Shown one piece after another: positions 12,346 to 58,270 of a stretch of 64,000 bases of DNA. Position 1 is the stretch's first letter. Each line of letters starts with the position of its first letter. The notes under the pieces are model-generated. The model had not been told where the DNA came from, did not search any database, and saw nothing but the letters and a program-made list of their open reading frames with translations. Both the position numbers and the translations under genes were made by a program. The stretch is from the NCBI GenBank assembly GCA_965205015.1, contig OZ242029.1, forward strand, positions 2,496,001-2,560,000, in the 5' to 3' direction. This DNA is from Candidatus Poribacteria bacterium (lineage in GTDB: Bacteria > Poribacteria > WGA-4E > WGA-3G).

Positions 12346-12362
12346 ATTTCCGATTTTCCGCG

Positions 12363-12385
12363 CTGGCGAGGTTTCTAACCTCGCC
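12363..12385. repeat. REP-like hairpin (empty form of nested repeat)
   Basis: CTGGCGAGGTTTCTAACCTCGCC; the same arms flank insertions at 49978-50211 and 58122-58270. Confidence 0.8.
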
Positions 12386-12425
12386 TATTTCATCCAATTA
12401 AAGGCACCCTAAAAGGAACACCCTC

Positions 12426-16537: not shown

Positions 16538-17293
16538 ATGGAAACGCATCCAAATTCACGCCACATCCCTTACGCTCCCACAGAAACTGCTGATCTATAC
16601 CCTGAATCGGATGGAAAACCTATGGCTGAGACGGATATGCACGCGGTGGCTATCATCGATTTACGGCACCGTTTTGACAACTTCTTCGCGGATAATCTGG
16701 ATACTTATGTCTCCGGGACTATCATGATGTATGATGTAGAGGGTCCCGGCCGTACCGCTGTCTCGCCCGATATCCTCGTCTCTTTCGGCATAGGTAAGAA
16801 ACTCCGCCGCACTTATAAGGTGTGGGAAGAGGGGAAGCCGCCAGACTTCGTGATGGAGTTTTCAAGCAAAGGGACGTTTCAAAATGACTTAGGACATAAA
16901 AAGGCACATTACGCGTCAATGGGAATACCGGAGTATTTTCTCTGCGATATAGACAAACGCTATTTGCCCACGCCGCTGATGGGGTTTTGTCTCAAAGATG
17001 GGATTTATGAGCGGATACCGGAGAACACCGATGGCAGTATCTCCTCTGTGATATTAGGCGTATCGTTCCATCTGTCGGATGAGGGATTAGCCGTTTATGA
17101 TGAGGCGACGGGGCAGTGGCTGCAAACGCCTGCTGAAGCGGCAGAGCAGCGTGCAGAACAAGAAGCCGCCGCACGGGCGCGTGAAGCCGCCGCACGGGCG
17201 CGTGAAGCCGCCGCACGGGCGGAAGCGGAAGCAGAAGCCTCGCGTCTACGCGAAGAACTTGAGCGTCTCAAAGGGCGCTTGTCAGAGGACTAA
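16538..17293 (+). CDS. Uma2 family endonuclease with C-terminal coiled-coil repeats
   Basis: YPESDGKPMAET, SPDILV, KPPDFVMEFSS, IPEYFLCD; start ATG 16538 after GGAG. Confidence 0.9.
   Translation: METHPNSRHIPYAPTETADLYPESDGKPMAETDMHAVAIIDLRHRFDNFFADNLDTYVSGTIMMYDVEGPGRTAVSPDILVSFGIGKKLRRTYKVWEEGKPPDFVMEFSSKGTFQNDLGHKKAHYASMGIPEYFLCDIDKRYLPTPLMGFCLKDGIYERIPENTDGSISSVILGVSFHLSDEGLAVYDEATGQWLQTPAEAAEQRAEQEAAARAREAAARAREAAARAEAEAEASRLREELERLKGRLSED
17162..17221 (+). repeat. 21-bp in-frame tandem repeat (about 2.9 copies) encoding EAAARAR
   Basis: GAAGCCGCCGCACGGGCGCGT at 17162, 17183 and 17204 (last copy partial). Confidence 0.95.
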
Positions 17294-19387: not shown

Positions 19388-19413
19388 TCGCATTTCACTG
19401 ACGAAAACTTTAG

Positions 19414-19436
19414 AAGCCCCCGCACGGGGGTTTTTT
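19414..19436 (+). terminator. Rho-independent terminator
   Basis: CCCCCG-CA-CGGGGG stem followed by TTTTTT. Confidence 0.75.
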
Positions 19437-38932: not shown

Positions 38933-39021
38933 CGTAGCTTGGAACGAAGTGGAAAGCGGATCTACGGAGAAGGACGTGCAAACCTCCGATCACCTAACCG
39001 ACCGCAAGGAAAATTAAAAAA
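38933..39021 (+). repeat. Dispersed repeat ending in RBS-bearing ACCGCAAGGAAAATT
   Basis: CGTAGC...AGTGGA..GCGGAT.TACGGA...CACCT.ACCGA.CCGCAAGGAA also at 47806-47920. Confidence 0.75.
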
Positions 39022-40660: not shown

Positions 40661-41170
40661 TTAGGAAGAAGATTCTGACGCAATCTTGCTGGTGATAAAA
40701 TTAACGACTTCCTCAGGGGAGTGTTTTCCGAATCGGACGTAAACACCACGGAAGTTTTCAAGGCGTGTCGGATGGGCGAATGGACTGAGCAATACGCCAT
40801 TCGCGTCAACGTAAAAACTGCGAAATGTTTCCCAGGATCGCTCTAATTTATAGCAGCAACTTGTGATGATAAGTTTATCTGCTTCACAGTGATGGTGAAA
40901 CGGGAGAAAATATTTGTAGAGCGACCCGAGTAGAAAAGTGGCGGATAGCAGGGCGATGTAAATTGATTGGAAACCCCAATAGATGCCGATGAAAAGAAGG
41001 GTTAGAAAAACCGCTAATAAGATGGACTTGCGCCAATTTTCAACGAGTGGATGGACTGTCCATGAAAGCTTAGGTGGAAGGGTGGAAGGGTGGAAGGATG
41101 GGTGTCCACTCTTCCCTTCTTCCCTTCTTCCATCCGAGCGTCTTCCATTCCAGCTACTATTCTGTCCCAT
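40661..41170 (-). CDS. Hypothetical membrane protein with repeat-derived N-terminus
   Basis: ATG 41170 overlaps end of secG; two TM helices; LLSPF...LENFRG. Confidence 0.7.
   Translation of the reverse strand: MGQNSSWNGRRSDGRREEGKSGHPSFHPSTLPPKLSWTVHPLVENWRKSILLAVFLTLLFIGIYWGFQSIYIALLSATFLLGSLYKYFLPFHHHCEADKLIITSCCYKLERSWETFRSFYVDANGVLLSPFAHPTRLENFRGVYVRFGKHSPEEVVNFITSKIASESSS
41073..41151 (-). repeat. GGAAG/CTTCC 8-nt-periodic imperfect palindrome, in frame in CDS
   Basis: GGAATGGAAG...GGAAGAAGGGAAGAAGGGAAG...CCTTCCACCCTTCCACCCTTCCACC; related copy at 54300-54373. Confidence 0.8.
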
Positions 41171-47577: not shown

Positions 47578-47656
47578 TATTTGTTTCTGATATGAATTTC
47601 AGAAGCGATCTGGTGTTTAATAATAGAATATAAAGGTCAAGGACTCGACCGCTTGA

Positions 47657-47920
47657 CCGAACCGCAAGGAATTTTTTAAATGTTCGCGAGGCGAGAAATG
47701 GGGTGTTTTGTTTATTGAGGATTTCCTCTTATATCCGCCTGCGTGTTTTTGCTTGGGTATTTCTGTGTATTGTTGCAGGCTGCTGTCTTGGATAGAACGA
47801 AAAGCCGTAGCCTGTAACGGAGTGGAGGGCGGATATACGGAAAAGCGCGTTATTCTTCAAAACCCACCTGACCGAGCCGCAAGGAACAATTAAAAAACCG
47901 AACCGCAAGGAAAATTTAAA
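47657..47920. repeat. Composite repeat region upstream of aspS
   Basis: Three CCGA.CCGCAAGGAA copies, an inverted pair of AGCCTG(C/T)AAC...GGCGGATAT, and GTTTTTGCTTGGGTATTTC at 47745-63. Confidence 0.75.
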
Positions 47921-49960
47921 ATGTCTCAAGAAACTCAAGAAGCTACATCACCTTGTTTAAAACGGACCCATTATTGTGGGGACCTGCGCTTAGCCGATGC
48001 AGGCGTCACTGTGCAACTCAACGGCTGGGTCAACCGCCGTCGAGACCATGGGGGCGTCATCTTCGTTGATTTACGCGATAGAACAGGCATCACACAAGTT
48101 GTCTTTGATCCACAGATTGATGAAAAAGCACACGTCCTCGCAGATAGTATTAGAAGCGAATATGTGCTGAACGTCAGCGGCATCGTCCGCGAACGGGATC
48201 CAGGCGAATTGCTGTTCCATGCGGACGCTGCGTACCAGACGGAACTCGCCGATGGCACCCTCTCCGCAGCGTTCCGATCTCTGTTTTCGGATGTCGATAC
48301 GAAGTACACCCTCTCTGAAGAGATTGAGGTAGCGACCCGCGTCGCCGGCACGCGGTGGCTGCTCACCGATGTCGAAAACAATCGGACGTATCACATCGTC
48401 AGTGAAGATGCGGGGGCGGAAAACGGTCTCAGCATTTATCAAGGCACGGTCAACCCGGAACTCGATACGGGTGAAATTGAAGTCGCTGTGGATTCTCTGA
48501 ATATTCTGAATACTGCCAAAACGCCGCCGTTCCCAGTTGAAGACGACGTTGACGTAGCGGAAGACATTCGGATGCGCTACCGATTCGTCGATCTACGCCG
48601 TCCTGAGATGCAGAAGACTTTGGCGATGCGGCATAAGGCAGCACTTGCAGCACGCAACTATATGAACGAGCAGGGTTTCCTTGAGATTGAGACTCCCATT
48701 TTGATGAACAGCACGCCAGAGGGGGCGCGCGATGTACTCGTTCCGAGTCGTCATTACCCCGGCAGGTTCTATGCGCTTCCACAATCCCCGCAGCAGTTCA
48801 AACAGATTTTGATGATGAGCGGTGTTGATCGGTATTTCCAGATAGCACGGTGCTTCCGCGATGAGGATACCCGTGCTGACAGACAGTTGGAATTCACCCA
48901 GCTTGATATTGAAATGTCATTCGCCGACGTGGACGATGTACTTGAGGTGACCGAGGGGTTGATGAAACGCATATTTGAGGATGCGGGGGGTATTCCCGTC
49001 CAAACGCCTTTCCTACGGCTCCCATATTACGAGTCGATGGCACGGTTCGGGAACGACAAACCCGACACGCGGTTCGGTATGGAGCTGACCGATCTCTCGG
49101 ATGTCATGGCGGACTGTGAGTTTCAGGTATTTACACGCACCTTGTCGGCAGGTGGGCAGGTTAAAGCCATTGCCGCGCCAGGGGGTGCAGACTTTTCACG
49201 CAAAGATATCGATGACCTGACGCAATTTGTCGCCATCTATCGCGCGAAAGGATTGGCATGGGTTAAGGTCACAGCAGACGGATTTTCCTCGGGTATCGTT
49301 AAGTTCTTCACAACAGAGCAACTTGAAACGGCACAGGAGAGAACGGGCGCGAAACCGGGCGATATCATGTTCTTTGTCGCCGACACACCGAAGGTCGTCG
49401 CCGATGCCCTCGGCAACCTCCGCCTCCACCTCGGACGCAAACTCAACCTCATTGACGAAACTCGGTACAACTTCCTGTGGATCGTTGATTATCCGCTGTT
49501 TGAGTGGAACGAGGATGAGAATCGGTATGAATCGGTACATCATCTATTCAGCGCGCCGAAAGAAGAATTTCTACCGCTCTTAGAGACGGATCCGAGTAAA
49601 GTCCAAGGTCAACACTACGATCTGGTGTGCAACGGCTATGAGATCTGTAGCGGAAGCGTGAGAATTCACCAGTGGGATGTTCAACAGAAGGTGTTTAAGA
49701 TTATAGGCATTACACCCGAGGATGTCAAAAATCGCTTTGGCTATTTCATAGACGCCTTGGCGTATGGCACGCCGCCGCATGCAGGTATTGCCCCGGGTTT
49801 AGACCGGATTGTTATGTTGATGCGGAATGAGGAGAACATCCGAGAGGTCATCGCGTTCCCGAAATCGCAACAGGGACTGTGCCCGCTCACACACGCTCCC
49901 TCTGTTGTAACGGATGCCCAACTGGAAGAGTTATCAATTCGCGTTGATGCAGAACTCTAA
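47921..49960 (+). CDS. aspS: Aspartate--tRNA ligase with 80-aa insertion
   Basis: RTHYCG, RDHGGVIFVDLRD, STPEGARD, LPQSPQ, CFRDED, PPHAGIAPGLDR. Confidence 0.97.
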   Translation: MSQETQEATSPCLKRTHYCGDLRLADAGVTVQLNGWVNRRRDHGGVIFVDLRDRTGITQVVFDPQIDEKAHVLADSIRSEYVLNVSGIVRERDPGELLFHADAAYQTELADGTLSAAFRSLFSDVDTKYTLSEEIEVATRVAGTRWLLTDVENNRTYHIVSEDAGAENGLSIYQGTVNPELDTGEIEVAVDSLNILNTAKTPPFPVEDDVDVAEDIRMRYRFVDLRRPEMQKTLAMRHKAALAARNYMNEQGFLEIETPILMNSTPEGARDVLVPSRHYPGRFYALPQSPQQFKQILMMSGVDRYFQIARCFRDEDTRADRQLEFTQLDIEMSFADVDDVLEVTEGLMKRIFEDAGGIPVQTPFLRLPYYESMARFGNDKPDTRFGMELTDLSDVMADCEFQVFTRTLSAGGQVKAIAAPGGADFSRKDIDDLTQFVAIYRAKGLAWVKVTADGFSSGIVKFFTTEQLETAQERTGAKPGDIMFFVADTPKVVADALGNLRLHLGRKLNLIDETRYNFLWIVDYPLFEWNEDENRYESVHHLFSAPKEEFLPLLETDPSKVQGQHYDLVCNGYEICSGSVRIHQWDVQQKVFKIIGITPEDVKNRFGYFIDALAYGTPPHAGIAPGLDRIVMLMRNEENIREVIAFPKSQQGLCPLTHAPSVVTDAQLEELSIRVDAEL

Positions 49961-49977: not shown

Positions 49978-50211
49978 CTGGCGAGGTTTCATGAAGATTA
50001 ATTTTTTAATTCGGTAATATGCGGGCAGGCACGAGACCTGGGGAAACACCCAAGCAAAAACCCCCTACAATGTCTTTTTTGCGATAGGATTTTCGGTAAT
50101 ATGCGGGCAGGCACGAGACCTGGGGAAACACCCAAGCAAAAACCCCCTACAATGTCTTTTTTGGGATAGGATTACCGAAATATTTATTTAAACTTCATCT
50201 AACCTCGCCAG
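49978..50211. repeat. Nested palindromic repeat with internal 82-bp tandem duplication
   Basis: CTGGCGAGGTTTC|ATGAAG..TTCGGTAAT..[unit x2]..ATTACCGAA..CTTCAT|CTAACCTCGCCAG. Confidence 0.9.
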
Positions 50212-54164: not shown

Positions 54165-55634
54165 ATGGAAACGCCACGTCCCATTGTTGCGATCGTCGGC
54201 AGACCGAACGTCGGAAAATCATCGCTTTTCAATCGAATCACTGGAAATAGCCGTCGGCAGAATAGCCGTCAGCGGTCAGCCGTCAGGCGTCAGGAAGAGG
54301 GAATGGAAGAAGGGAAGAAAGGAAGAAGGGAAGGATGGGAGTCCCACGCTTCCACTCCTCCACTCTTCCAACCAAATGCCGAAAACCGTGTCTCGCGTAA
54401 ATACGCTGTCGTTCATGACACTCCCGGCGTGACGCGCGACAGGAACTACGCTGACGTGGAATGGGCAGACCGCGCTTTTACCATCGTTGACACCGGTGGT
54501 TTGGACGTTGATCCGGATGACCGACTCATTGATAGCGTTCAAGCACAGGTAGATACAGCGGTGGCTGAAGCGGATCTCGTCCTTTTTGTCGTTGACGCGC
54601 GAGCCGGTATCATGCCCCACGATAGGGTTGTCGTTGATAAACTCAGAACCGCTGGTAAACCTATCTTCCTCGTCGTCAATAAGGTAGATAGCGACCGATT
54701 TCACAATGAAGCCGCTGAGTTTTACGCGCTCGGATTGGCAGAGCCACTGTTGACCTCGTGTGTCCAAAACGATGGAATTCGGGAACTCCTTGACCGCGTC
54801 GTTGATGCCCTTCCAGAGACCGATGAAACTGTCCACGCTGCGCCAGCTACGATGAAAATCGCCGTTGTTGGCAGGCCGAATGTCGGAAAATCCTCGTTTA
54901 TCAACAGTTTGTTGGGTGAAGAACGGATGATTGTTGATGACCGACCTGGTACCACGCGTGATGCAGTGAATATACGGATCGTTCACGACAATATCCCTTT
55001 TGAGGTCGTTGATACAGCGGGAATGCGGCGTAAATCCACTATCAATGATGCGCTTGAATCGGCGACCGTCCAACGTGCGATACACAGCATTCGCCAAAGT
55101 GACATCGCTGTACTGATGCTGGATGTAACCCAGGAGGTCGCGCAGCAGGATAAAACGATTGCTAATTTCATCGAACGCCAAGGGAAAGCCTCCGTTTTAG
55201 TCATGAACAAGTGGGACCTAATTGATAAAGACAACACAACGCATCCAGCGTTTATGGATGCGATAGATGTCCAGTTTCCACAACTCGGCTATGTTCCACG
55301 GGTTTTCGTGTCGGCACTCACTGGACAGCGCGTTACCCAAGTATTAACGACTGCGCTTGAGGTCTACCGTGAGTATTGTACACACATCCCTACACCGGTA
55401 CTCAACGAATTGCTGCTGGAATTGCGGAGTGCGCATCCGCCGCCGCGGGTTAAAGGTGCACGTCCGGCGCTCAAATATATCACGCAGGTGGAAACCAAAC
55501 CGCCGACTTTTTTAATCTTCGGACGAAATATCCATCGCGTGCAGCAGCCGTATGAGGCGTACCTTATCAACAGTATTCGGAAGGAATTTGGATTTCACGG
55601 CACACCGATACGGATTTTTTATCGCAGGTCATAA
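54165..55634 (+). CDS. der: Ribosome biogenesis GTPase Der with about 49-aa insertion
   Basis: Two GRPNVGKSS P-loops, PGVTRDR, DTGG, DTAG, NKWD, FGFHGTPIRI. Confidence 0.96.
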   Translation: METPRPIVAIVGRPNVGKSSLFNRITGNSRRQNSRQRSAVRRQEEGMEEGKKGRREGWESHASTPPLFQPNAENRVSRKYAVVHDTPGVTRDRNYADVEWADRAFTIVDTGGLDVDPDDRLIDSVQAQVDTAVAEADLVLFVVDARAGIMPHDRVVVDKLRTAGKPIFLVVNKVDSDRFHNEAAEFYALGLAEPLLTSCVQNDGIRELLDRVVDALPETDETVHAAPATMKIAVVGRPNVGKSSFINSLLGEERMIVDDRPGTTRDAVNIRIVHDNIPFEVVDTAGMRRKSTINDALESATVQRAIHSIRQSDIAVLMLDVTQEVAQQDKTIANFIERQGKASVLVMNKWDLIDKDNTTHPAFMDAIDVQFPQLGYVPRVFVSALTGQRVTQVLTTALEVYREYCTHIPTPVLNELLLELRSAHPPPRVKGARPALKYITQVETKPPTFLIFGRNIHRVQQPYEAYLINSIRKEFGFHGTPIRIFYRRS

Positions 55635-58121: not shown

Positions 58122-58270
58122 CTGGCGGGGTTTCATGAGGATTAACAATTTAATTCGGTAATGCGTGGGCAGGCACAAGACCCGGGGAAACACCCAAGCA
58201 AAAACCCCCTACAGTCGTTTTTTGGGATAGAATTACCGAAATATTTTCTTAAACTTCATCTAACCCCGCC
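58122..58270. repeat. Nested palindromic repeat (single-unit copy)
   Basis: CTGGCGGGGTTTC|ATGAGG..TTCGGTAAT..GGGAAACACCCAAGCAAAAACCCCCTAC..ATTACCGAA..CTTCAT|CTAACCCCGCC. Confidence 0.9.

Follow-up and report, generated by a model that had tools for sequence, protein, structure and literature searches.

The intergenic segment at positions 49978–50211 of the window, by which we mean the whole 64-kb stretch of Candidatus Poribacteria DNA that was analysed, probably arose as a stack of four small non-coding repeats that was built up by successive insertions and then underwent a local duplication; we give this model as a whole a probability of about 80%. The four repeats, which we have designated H, T, R and the cassette from the outside inwards, were a REP hairpin, a MITE of an IS630-family insertion sequence, a second, REP-like hairpin at the centre of the MITE and a conserved module of ~22 nt.

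According to this model H (GGYGNGGTT, a 3–4-nt loop, AACCNCRCC) would have been present first at intergenic sites. An IS630-family DDE transposase would then have placed T at the centre of the hairpin loop, between two arms that remain complementary, which would explain why T splits H exactly at its loop; one base would most likely have been duplicated instead of the family's usual TA. A second hairpin with a GTAG tag (R) would form the centre of T; in other T subfamilies the centre is an H-type hairpin that could be hit again by T or by an insertion sequence to give a nested-doll recursion. R would hold the ~22-nt dispersed module, a putative very small mobile or copied insert. Finally, an 82-bp stretch of T would have been doubled, probably by slippage or unequal exchange at ATT/AATT border homology.

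Layout of the nested repeats

The features of the stack and of the related sites in the window were as follows.

12363–12385: empty H hairpin with loop TCT, reading CTGGCGAGGTTTCTAACCTCGCC; the arms meet
47744–47769, minus strand: variant cassette, upstream of aspS, within a hairpin loop (stem CCTGCG...TGCAGG); the minus strand reads TACACAGAAATACCCAAGCAAAAACA
49978–49990: H left arm, CTGGCGAGGTTTC; core GGCGAGGTT at 49980–49988, with loop letters TC after the core
49991–50198: T, a 208-bp IS630-family MITE, ATGAAG...CTTCAT; terminal inverted repeats at 49991–50018 and 50171–50198
50010–50173: 82-bp tandem duplication within T; copies at 50010–50091 and 50092–50173 with one mismatch
50023–50068, plus strand: R hairpin with cassette, copy 1; GGGCAGGCACGAGACCTG, then the cassette, then CCCCTAC
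50105–50150, plus strand: R hairpin with cassette, copy 2, within the second 82-bp unit
50199–50211: H right arm, CTAACCTCGCCAG; loop letters CT, core AACCTCGCC at 50201–50209, then AG
58122–58134: H left arm, GGGG variant, CTGGCGGGGTTTC
58135–58259: T, single-unit copy of 125 bp; R with cassette at 58167–58212, cassette-region 29-mer at 58184–58212
58260–58270: H right arm, CCCC variant, CTAACCCCGCC

All of the sequences quoted in the initial annotation of this DNA were found in place when the letters were re-read. Its central observation, an outer hairpin that is empty at 12363 and split at its loop by elements of 208 bp (at 49978) and 125 bp (at 58122), stood, and the hierarchy of elements inserted into each other that it described is real. 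The number of layers was reduced from the five claimed to four. The terminal ATGAAG stretches are continuous with the TTCGGTAAT/ATTACCGAA arms in a single 28-nt terminal inverted repeat. They had been taken initially as the second and third layers and were merged because this repeat is intact in the full-length insertion sequence described below. It had been suggested that the nesting would be in doubt if the inner layers never occurred independently; H, T, R and the cassette were each found alone in related genomes.

The three H copies of the window were all intergenic, with H directly after stop codons. The site at 49978 lay between aspS and a dicarboxylate symporter gene, and that at 58122 lay 3′ of a permease gene, facing a PhyH gene. 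The empty-hairpin pattern had one match in the window and the cassette-region 29-mer had three, compared to 0 matches for each in 100 shuffles. The single T copy (58135–58259) folded as one long hairpin (DNA z −3.36, RNA z −3.72), and T at 49991–50198 contained no ORF of ≥50 aa. Searching the whole window against Rfam gave 0 families at gathering score. As no RAYT or IS630 transposase gene was present within the 64 kb, we infer both drivers from relatives at 82–91% identity.

Tandem Repeats Finder reported a period of 82 with 2.0 copies and 98% matches at 50010–50173, in agreement with the duplication of the inner unit noted initially at 50010 and 50092. No contig bridged this duplication and the assembly is therefore its only source. 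It is extremely improbable that the structures as a whole were created by the assembly of a repeat-rich metagenome bin. Short-read contigs of four runs broke inside the 49978–50211 locus, none of them spanning it entirely, which would fit an artefact, as would the lack of independent support for the 82-bp duplication. Against this, Logan contigs of the runs X16, X17 and X1 (from two studies; X16 and X17 may represent the source sample) spanned both H/T junctions of this locus and joined its unique flanks to the T ends with 0–1 differences, and the same architectures were encountered in related genomes whose records are titled single-chromosome assemblies. At loci L017 (= L054, G002:C1 ~4461950–4462120), L029 and L038, R or a portion of it was repeated in short tandem arrays, for example as three 21-nt units inside one T copy. 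Local duplication is therefore common in the T family.

Several other repeats were noted in the window. The sequence ACCG(A)ACCGCAAGGAA was present, with an A/T-rich run after it, in four copies (47656–47924 and 39001–39020), two of which lay just before the aspS start at 47921 and may belong to a shared leader or ribosome-binding region; the section between 47600 and 47900 was conserved in genome G004 and largely absent in genome G002. A 21-nt unit, GAAGCCGCCGCACGGGCGCGT, was repeated three times in tandem at 17162–17224, and a related small hairpin, GAAGCCCCCGCACGGGGGTTT, was found 2.2 kb away at 19413–19433. Purine-rich GGAAGG-type repeats were located at 41068–41107 and 54313–54344, the latter being followed by a pyrimidine-rich mirror (CTTCCACTCCTCC...) so as to form a long hairpin in the spacer at ~54260–54370.

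H is a REP hairpin that was present before T

The window was syntenic over nearly its full length with two single-chromosome records, G002 and G004, at 77–92% identity, and the closest genome sampled for one window segment was 91% identical. The genome-wide counts reported here were taken from related Poribacteria genomes and not from the window's own organism. Searching with the pattern GGYGNGGTT-N1-6-AACCNCRCC found 102, 151 and 194 empty H copies in G002, G004 and G005 respectively, with 0 matches to the reversed pattern used as a control. The arms fell into two main variants, GGCGAGG/CCTCGCC and GGTGCGG/CCGCACC, around variable loops of 3–4 nt. The GGTGCGG subfamily was usually preceded by GGTAG, and the GGCGAGG and GGCGGGG copies of the window were preceded by CTGG.

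A gene of 154 aa in G005 (L093:18919–19380) scored 118.3 bits against the NCBIfam model NF047646, REP-associated tyrosine transposase (cut-off 80), and passed Pfam Y1_Tnp. This gene had an array of H upstream and one H downstream. Given this flanking and the 102–194 copies per genome, H is a REP repeat, probably belonging to a RAYT (HUH tyrosine transposase) system, and the RAYT would be what spreads it. The initial proposal that a RAYT gene would be found flanked by the repeats of the stack held for H, in one of the five genomes searched, and failed for R, as none was found within 12 Y1 loci. Other Y1/RAYT genes in related genomes were flanked by three other REP families. At L084 (G001:C58) and L093:4500–6000 (G005), two further REP families, CCGCTCC-AGC-GGAGCGG and, in long arrays, GTCGGGAATTGGAGTTCCCTCCTACC, flanked Y1/RAYT genes of their own.

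H resembles the REPs described by Nunvar 2010 (PMC2817692) and by Bertels and Rainey 2011 (PMC3116915) in being a short intergenic palindrome of 100–200 copies per genome that flanks a RAYT gene, and the GTAG/CTAC head of the REPs in Table 1 of Nunvar 2010 (PMC2817692) is also carried by R and by one H subfamily. It differs from the REPs of those summaries (PMC2817692, PMC3116915) in its phylum, Poribacteria, and in that stems are conserved here while loops varied. In addition, several REP families coexist here, each with its own Y1 gene, the GGCGAGG subfamily of the window has CTGG in front and not GTAG, and the REPs serve as both landing pads and cargo for a DDE transposon.

Comparison of orthologous intergenic sites, in the genomes of relatives and in a metagenome contig, had been put forward as a check at the outset and revealed empty sites both for T and for the variant cassette. 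The site orthologous to 58122 was examined in 13 relatives, and 11 of them had an empty GGGG/CCCC hairpin, the loops of which were GT, CT (three times), ACA, TGT (three times), TAT, CCC and ACC. Of the remaining two, G002 had another H subfamily, and G053 had the left part of a T with an empty R inside. The covariation of the outer arms reported earlier (GAGG/CCTC versus GGGG/CCCC) is therefore real and represents two H variants that are older than the insertion, as the 11 relatives show the GGGG/CCCC form without an insert at the corresponding position. At 49978, both G002 and G004 were without T and retained the orthologous right arm. A metagenome contig of run X2, which had 1 mismatch in the 105 nt upstream of 49978, continued as GGTTTC+TAATCTCGCC and represents the empty site with loop TCT. 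H was thus shown to occupy these intergenic sites before T.

The ~55-nt stretch that holds the empty H at 12363 was absent from the orthologous site of G002, and G004 had another REP there. In the G004 ortholog of 12346–12410 the final 26 nt of the gene upstream, including its stop codon, were repeated, and a different GTAG-tagged hairpin followed this 26-nt repeat where the window has H.

The IS630-family element and its choice of hairpin tips

The terminal inverted repeat of T gave 90 matches in G005 and 0 in the control. Two of these repeats, perfect over 28 nt, bounded a 1,241-bp element (G005:C1:3669362–3670602) with an ORF of 395 aa, for which the scores were 167.8 bits with the IS630-family transposase model NF033545 (cut-off 100) and 72.3 bits with Pfam DDE_3. 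T is therefore, by its shared 28-nt terminal repeats, a MITE of this IS630-family insertion sequence. The insertion sequence itself lay in an H loop, its left and right flanks being GGCGAGGTTA and CAAACCTCGCC respectively. Relatives of the transposase were detected in 23 of 80 family genomes sampled at E<=1e-60, with 23 scored matches in G072. The initial annotation had inferred an uncharacterised insertion machinery; this does not apply to H and T, for which a RAYT and an IS630-family DDE transposase respectively are recognisable, and the machinery is not wholly uncharacterised for that reason.

The centres of T copies varied and consisted of an empty R (103–104 bp), R with the cassette (125–126 bp) or an H-type hairpin (116 bp). 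Some copies of the last kind had this hairpin split by a further insert. Locus L117 (G005:C1:736909–737111) was four deep: a T lay in an H-type hairpin that formed the centre of another T, which was itself in a further H. At L119 (G005:C1:3130702–3132305) a T copy contained an IS4-family insertion sequence with a 442-aa ORF (NF033592, 199 bits); this element adjoined the inner H-type hairpin of T, and the hairpin was present on both sides of it. Correia elements and RUP have been named as IS630-derived MITEs (PMC2817692).

Target choice was analysed for 74 distinct T-family insertions, 33 of them full-length and 41 MITE-size. The flanks could pair over ≥6 bp in 25 of the full-length and 30 of the MITE-size insertions, i.e. 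55 of 74, compared to 0.39% of 4,901 random positions; the other 19 copies had no paired flanks. The arms around the T family belonged to H and to several other hairpin families of unrelated sequence. In G072 all 22 full-length copies examined lay between H-type arms, although these are not all independent insertions, as 12 of the 22 had near-identical flanks taken from a T interior. Two loop letters were left on each side of the element in 40 of the 55 paired sites. From this we conclude that the IS630-family element and its MITEs target hairpin tips. The hairpin targeting proposed initially for the whole hierarchy thus held for T, the sole layer where such targeting is shown.

The IS630 family inserts at TA and duplicates it. 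T-family elements had TA on both sides in 1 of 74 cases. The same base flanked the element on both sides in 43 of the 55 paired sites and differed in 12. When pre-insertion loops were predicted, 36 of 55 were seen among 61 empty H if a 1-bp duplication was assumed, compared to 19 of 55 with no duplication. The empty and filled pairs agreed with this, an H loop TCT becoming TC|CT and, in one REP family, a loop AGC when empty becoming AG|GC when filled. T insertion therefore probably duplicates one base and not TA, although a no-duplication model at 4-nt loops also fits many sites. Duplications of 2 bp or 3 bp, and TA or AT targets, were considered and misfitted the flanks and empty sites.

With its NF033545/DDE_3 transposase, its 28-nt terminal repeats and its many gene-less short derivatives, the element resembles IS630/Tc1/mariner elements and the bacterial MITEs; it differs from them in that insertions were central in hairpin loops of varied sequence and were TA-flanked on both sides only in the single case noted above. 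Insertion sequences that target REPs include IS1397, ISKpn1, IS621, ISPpu9/10 and ISRm22 (Tobes and Pareja 2006, PMC1525189); the five families surveyed there were IS3, IS110, IS4, IS256 and IS5, and the term IS630 is absent from the text of that survey. REP hairpins are the preferred target in both cases. Compared to the elements as presented in PMC1525189, recognition here seems to depend on the shape of the hairpin and not on one REP sequence, and the MITEs are far more numerous than the parent element. Among the papers listed in literature searches, as judged by title and abstract, none described these Poribacteria repeats or hairpin-tip targeting.

The same data bear on a reading without a targeting enzyme, in which random insertions survived at the tips of useful hairpins (a terminator or mRNA stabiliser that is kept foldable by a palindromic insert in its loop), or broken loops were repaired with copied filler. 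This would fit the retention of an H with a variable loop at one intergenic site in 12 of 13 relatives, the position of H directly after stop codons and the imprecise junctions of the cassette. We nevertheless regard it as quite improbable, since the near-identical and apparently recent G072 copies lay between H-type arms in 22 of 22 cases, the normal TA duplication of the family was missing (1 of 74) and two loop letters remained on each side in 40 of 55 sites, an exactness of position that selection alone would not fix.

It is also unlikely that the whole H[T[R[cassette]]] is a composite that moves as a unit, the layers recording the history of one master copy, and for the H/T boundary this is already contradicted. 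The arms around T are of several unrelated sequences, the orthologous sites hold an empty H (11 of 13 at 58122, and a contig of run X2 at 49978), the cargos of T differ, and the cassette far outnumbers R and occurs in at least five other contexts. A composite would account for the recurrence of R with the cassette at an identical point in 16 loci and for the 12 of 22 G072 insertion-sequence copies whose near-identical flanks came from a T interior. The junction letters, moreover, show no covariation with the 5′ arm, which is what would be seen after a single old event and later drift.

The R hairpin and its ~22-nt cassette

R was a GTAG-tagged, REP-like hairpin at the centre of T with the reverse strand GTAGGGGCAGG...CCTGCCC; an empty R elsewhere read GGGCAGGCACAAGACCTGCCCCTAC. 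A strict R pattern was found in 16, 18 and 3 copies in G002, G004 and G005 respectively, of which 10, 11 and 3 were empty and 5, 6 and 0 were filled by the cassette; one copy in G002 and one in G004 had other inserted letters. R works like a REP, and in the five genomes whose 12 Y1 loci were inspected for flanking repeats it could not be placed in a REP/RAYT system by this means. A T precursor lacking the central hairpin was not seen among the T copies, and it is for this reason that we infer, and do not observe, the entry of R into T by insertion.

The insert in R had been described as a 19-bp cassette that split the REP-like hairpin. The conserved block was longer, at ~21–24 nt, and lay in the 3′ arm of R (CCTG|CCCCTAC) and not in its loop. 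When one mismatch was allowed in the 19-nt core, GAAAYACCCAAGCAAAAAC, four genomes contained 185, 151, 123 and 29 copies of the cassette, mostly outside R, compared to 0 in the control. It occurred in at least five unrelated contexts besides R, including a REP next to the RAYT gene of G004. In 19 copies that had been fetched without reference to the cassette, the conserved block was ~21–23 nt long, with the 19-nt core 95–100% conserved at most positions. A 24-mer of the cassette was located at 45 loci in a collection of species-representative genomes; the record titles were Candidatus or uncultured Poribacteria for 43 of these and "uncultured bacterium" for the other 2.

Both filled and empty states of the cassette exist in two REP families. 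The variant cassette of the window (47744–47769) was present in a hairpin loop for which the G004 ortholog has only CCG (3 nt). Junctions were imprecise, with 3 nt replaced at 47744 and one base lost in a G004 REP, and so fit copying or repair as well as transposition. Cassette orientation showed no link to the neighbouring reading frames (10 versus 12 co-directional cases), and among the 100 of 123 copies listed in G005 there was no clear bias of strand with replication arm (22+/14− and 25+/22−). On the 288,641-bp contig C2 of G005, 15 of the 17 exact cassette copies listed were on the minus strand, and several of the C2 copies belong to a TATAGTAAAG...TTTTACTATA MITE.

In these comparisons the behaviour of the cassette is that of a tiny insert, mobile or copied, that is found within REP hairpins or next to them. 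It might instead be immobile, a conserved functional motif (a binding site for protein or RNA) that repeat families have in common or pass on by conversion; we consider this doubtful but worth retaining. The 95–100% conservation of the core at most positions in the 19 copies would suit a motif of this kind, as would the lack of terminal repeats and of a hairpin of its own, the imprecise junctions and the frequent position directly beside the CCTAC/GTAGG head of REPs. A fixed motif agrees less well with the presence and absence of the cassette at one orthologous loop (47744–47769 versus G004), with an orientation tied neither to reading frames (10 versus 12) nor clearly to strand or replication arm (among the 100 of 123 G005 copies listed), and with the window having no match to an Rfam family at gathering score.

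The small dispersed repeats (SDR) of Nostoc and its relatives, which Elhai et al. reportedly described in 2008, are said to be 21–27 nt long, to reach high copy number and to be nested in other repeats. On this description, SDR would be the nearest analogue of the cassette, which is likewise ~22 nt long, present in 29–185 copies per genome and located inside hairpin repeats; the cassette comes from another phylum and has another sequence.

A mobile cassette may be inserted into REP hairpins either at the loop or adjacent to the GTAGG head, possibly through the single-strand cut-and-join chemistry of RAYT. A stronger form of our model can be offered only tentatively, somewhat short of an even chance: that a clade of IS630/mariner transposases reads the shape of a hairpin or cruciform tip instead of TA, with a one-base stagger, and that the ~22-nt cassette is a true ultra-small mobile element. 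If so, nature would have re-targeted a transposase of the mariner type to hairpin tips, which would mean that target choice can shift within a well-studied family. The cassette would be among the smallest mobile DNAs known, possibly a second example of near-minimal mobile DNA, and RAYT activity would gain a readable product.

For annotation, the locus is a warning that stacks of this kind are to be read as successive insertions and not as single elements or structured RNAs. In it, REP hairpins, MITEs and smaller modules can be seen to build up the DNA between the genes of a major symbiont of sponges that is uncultured.
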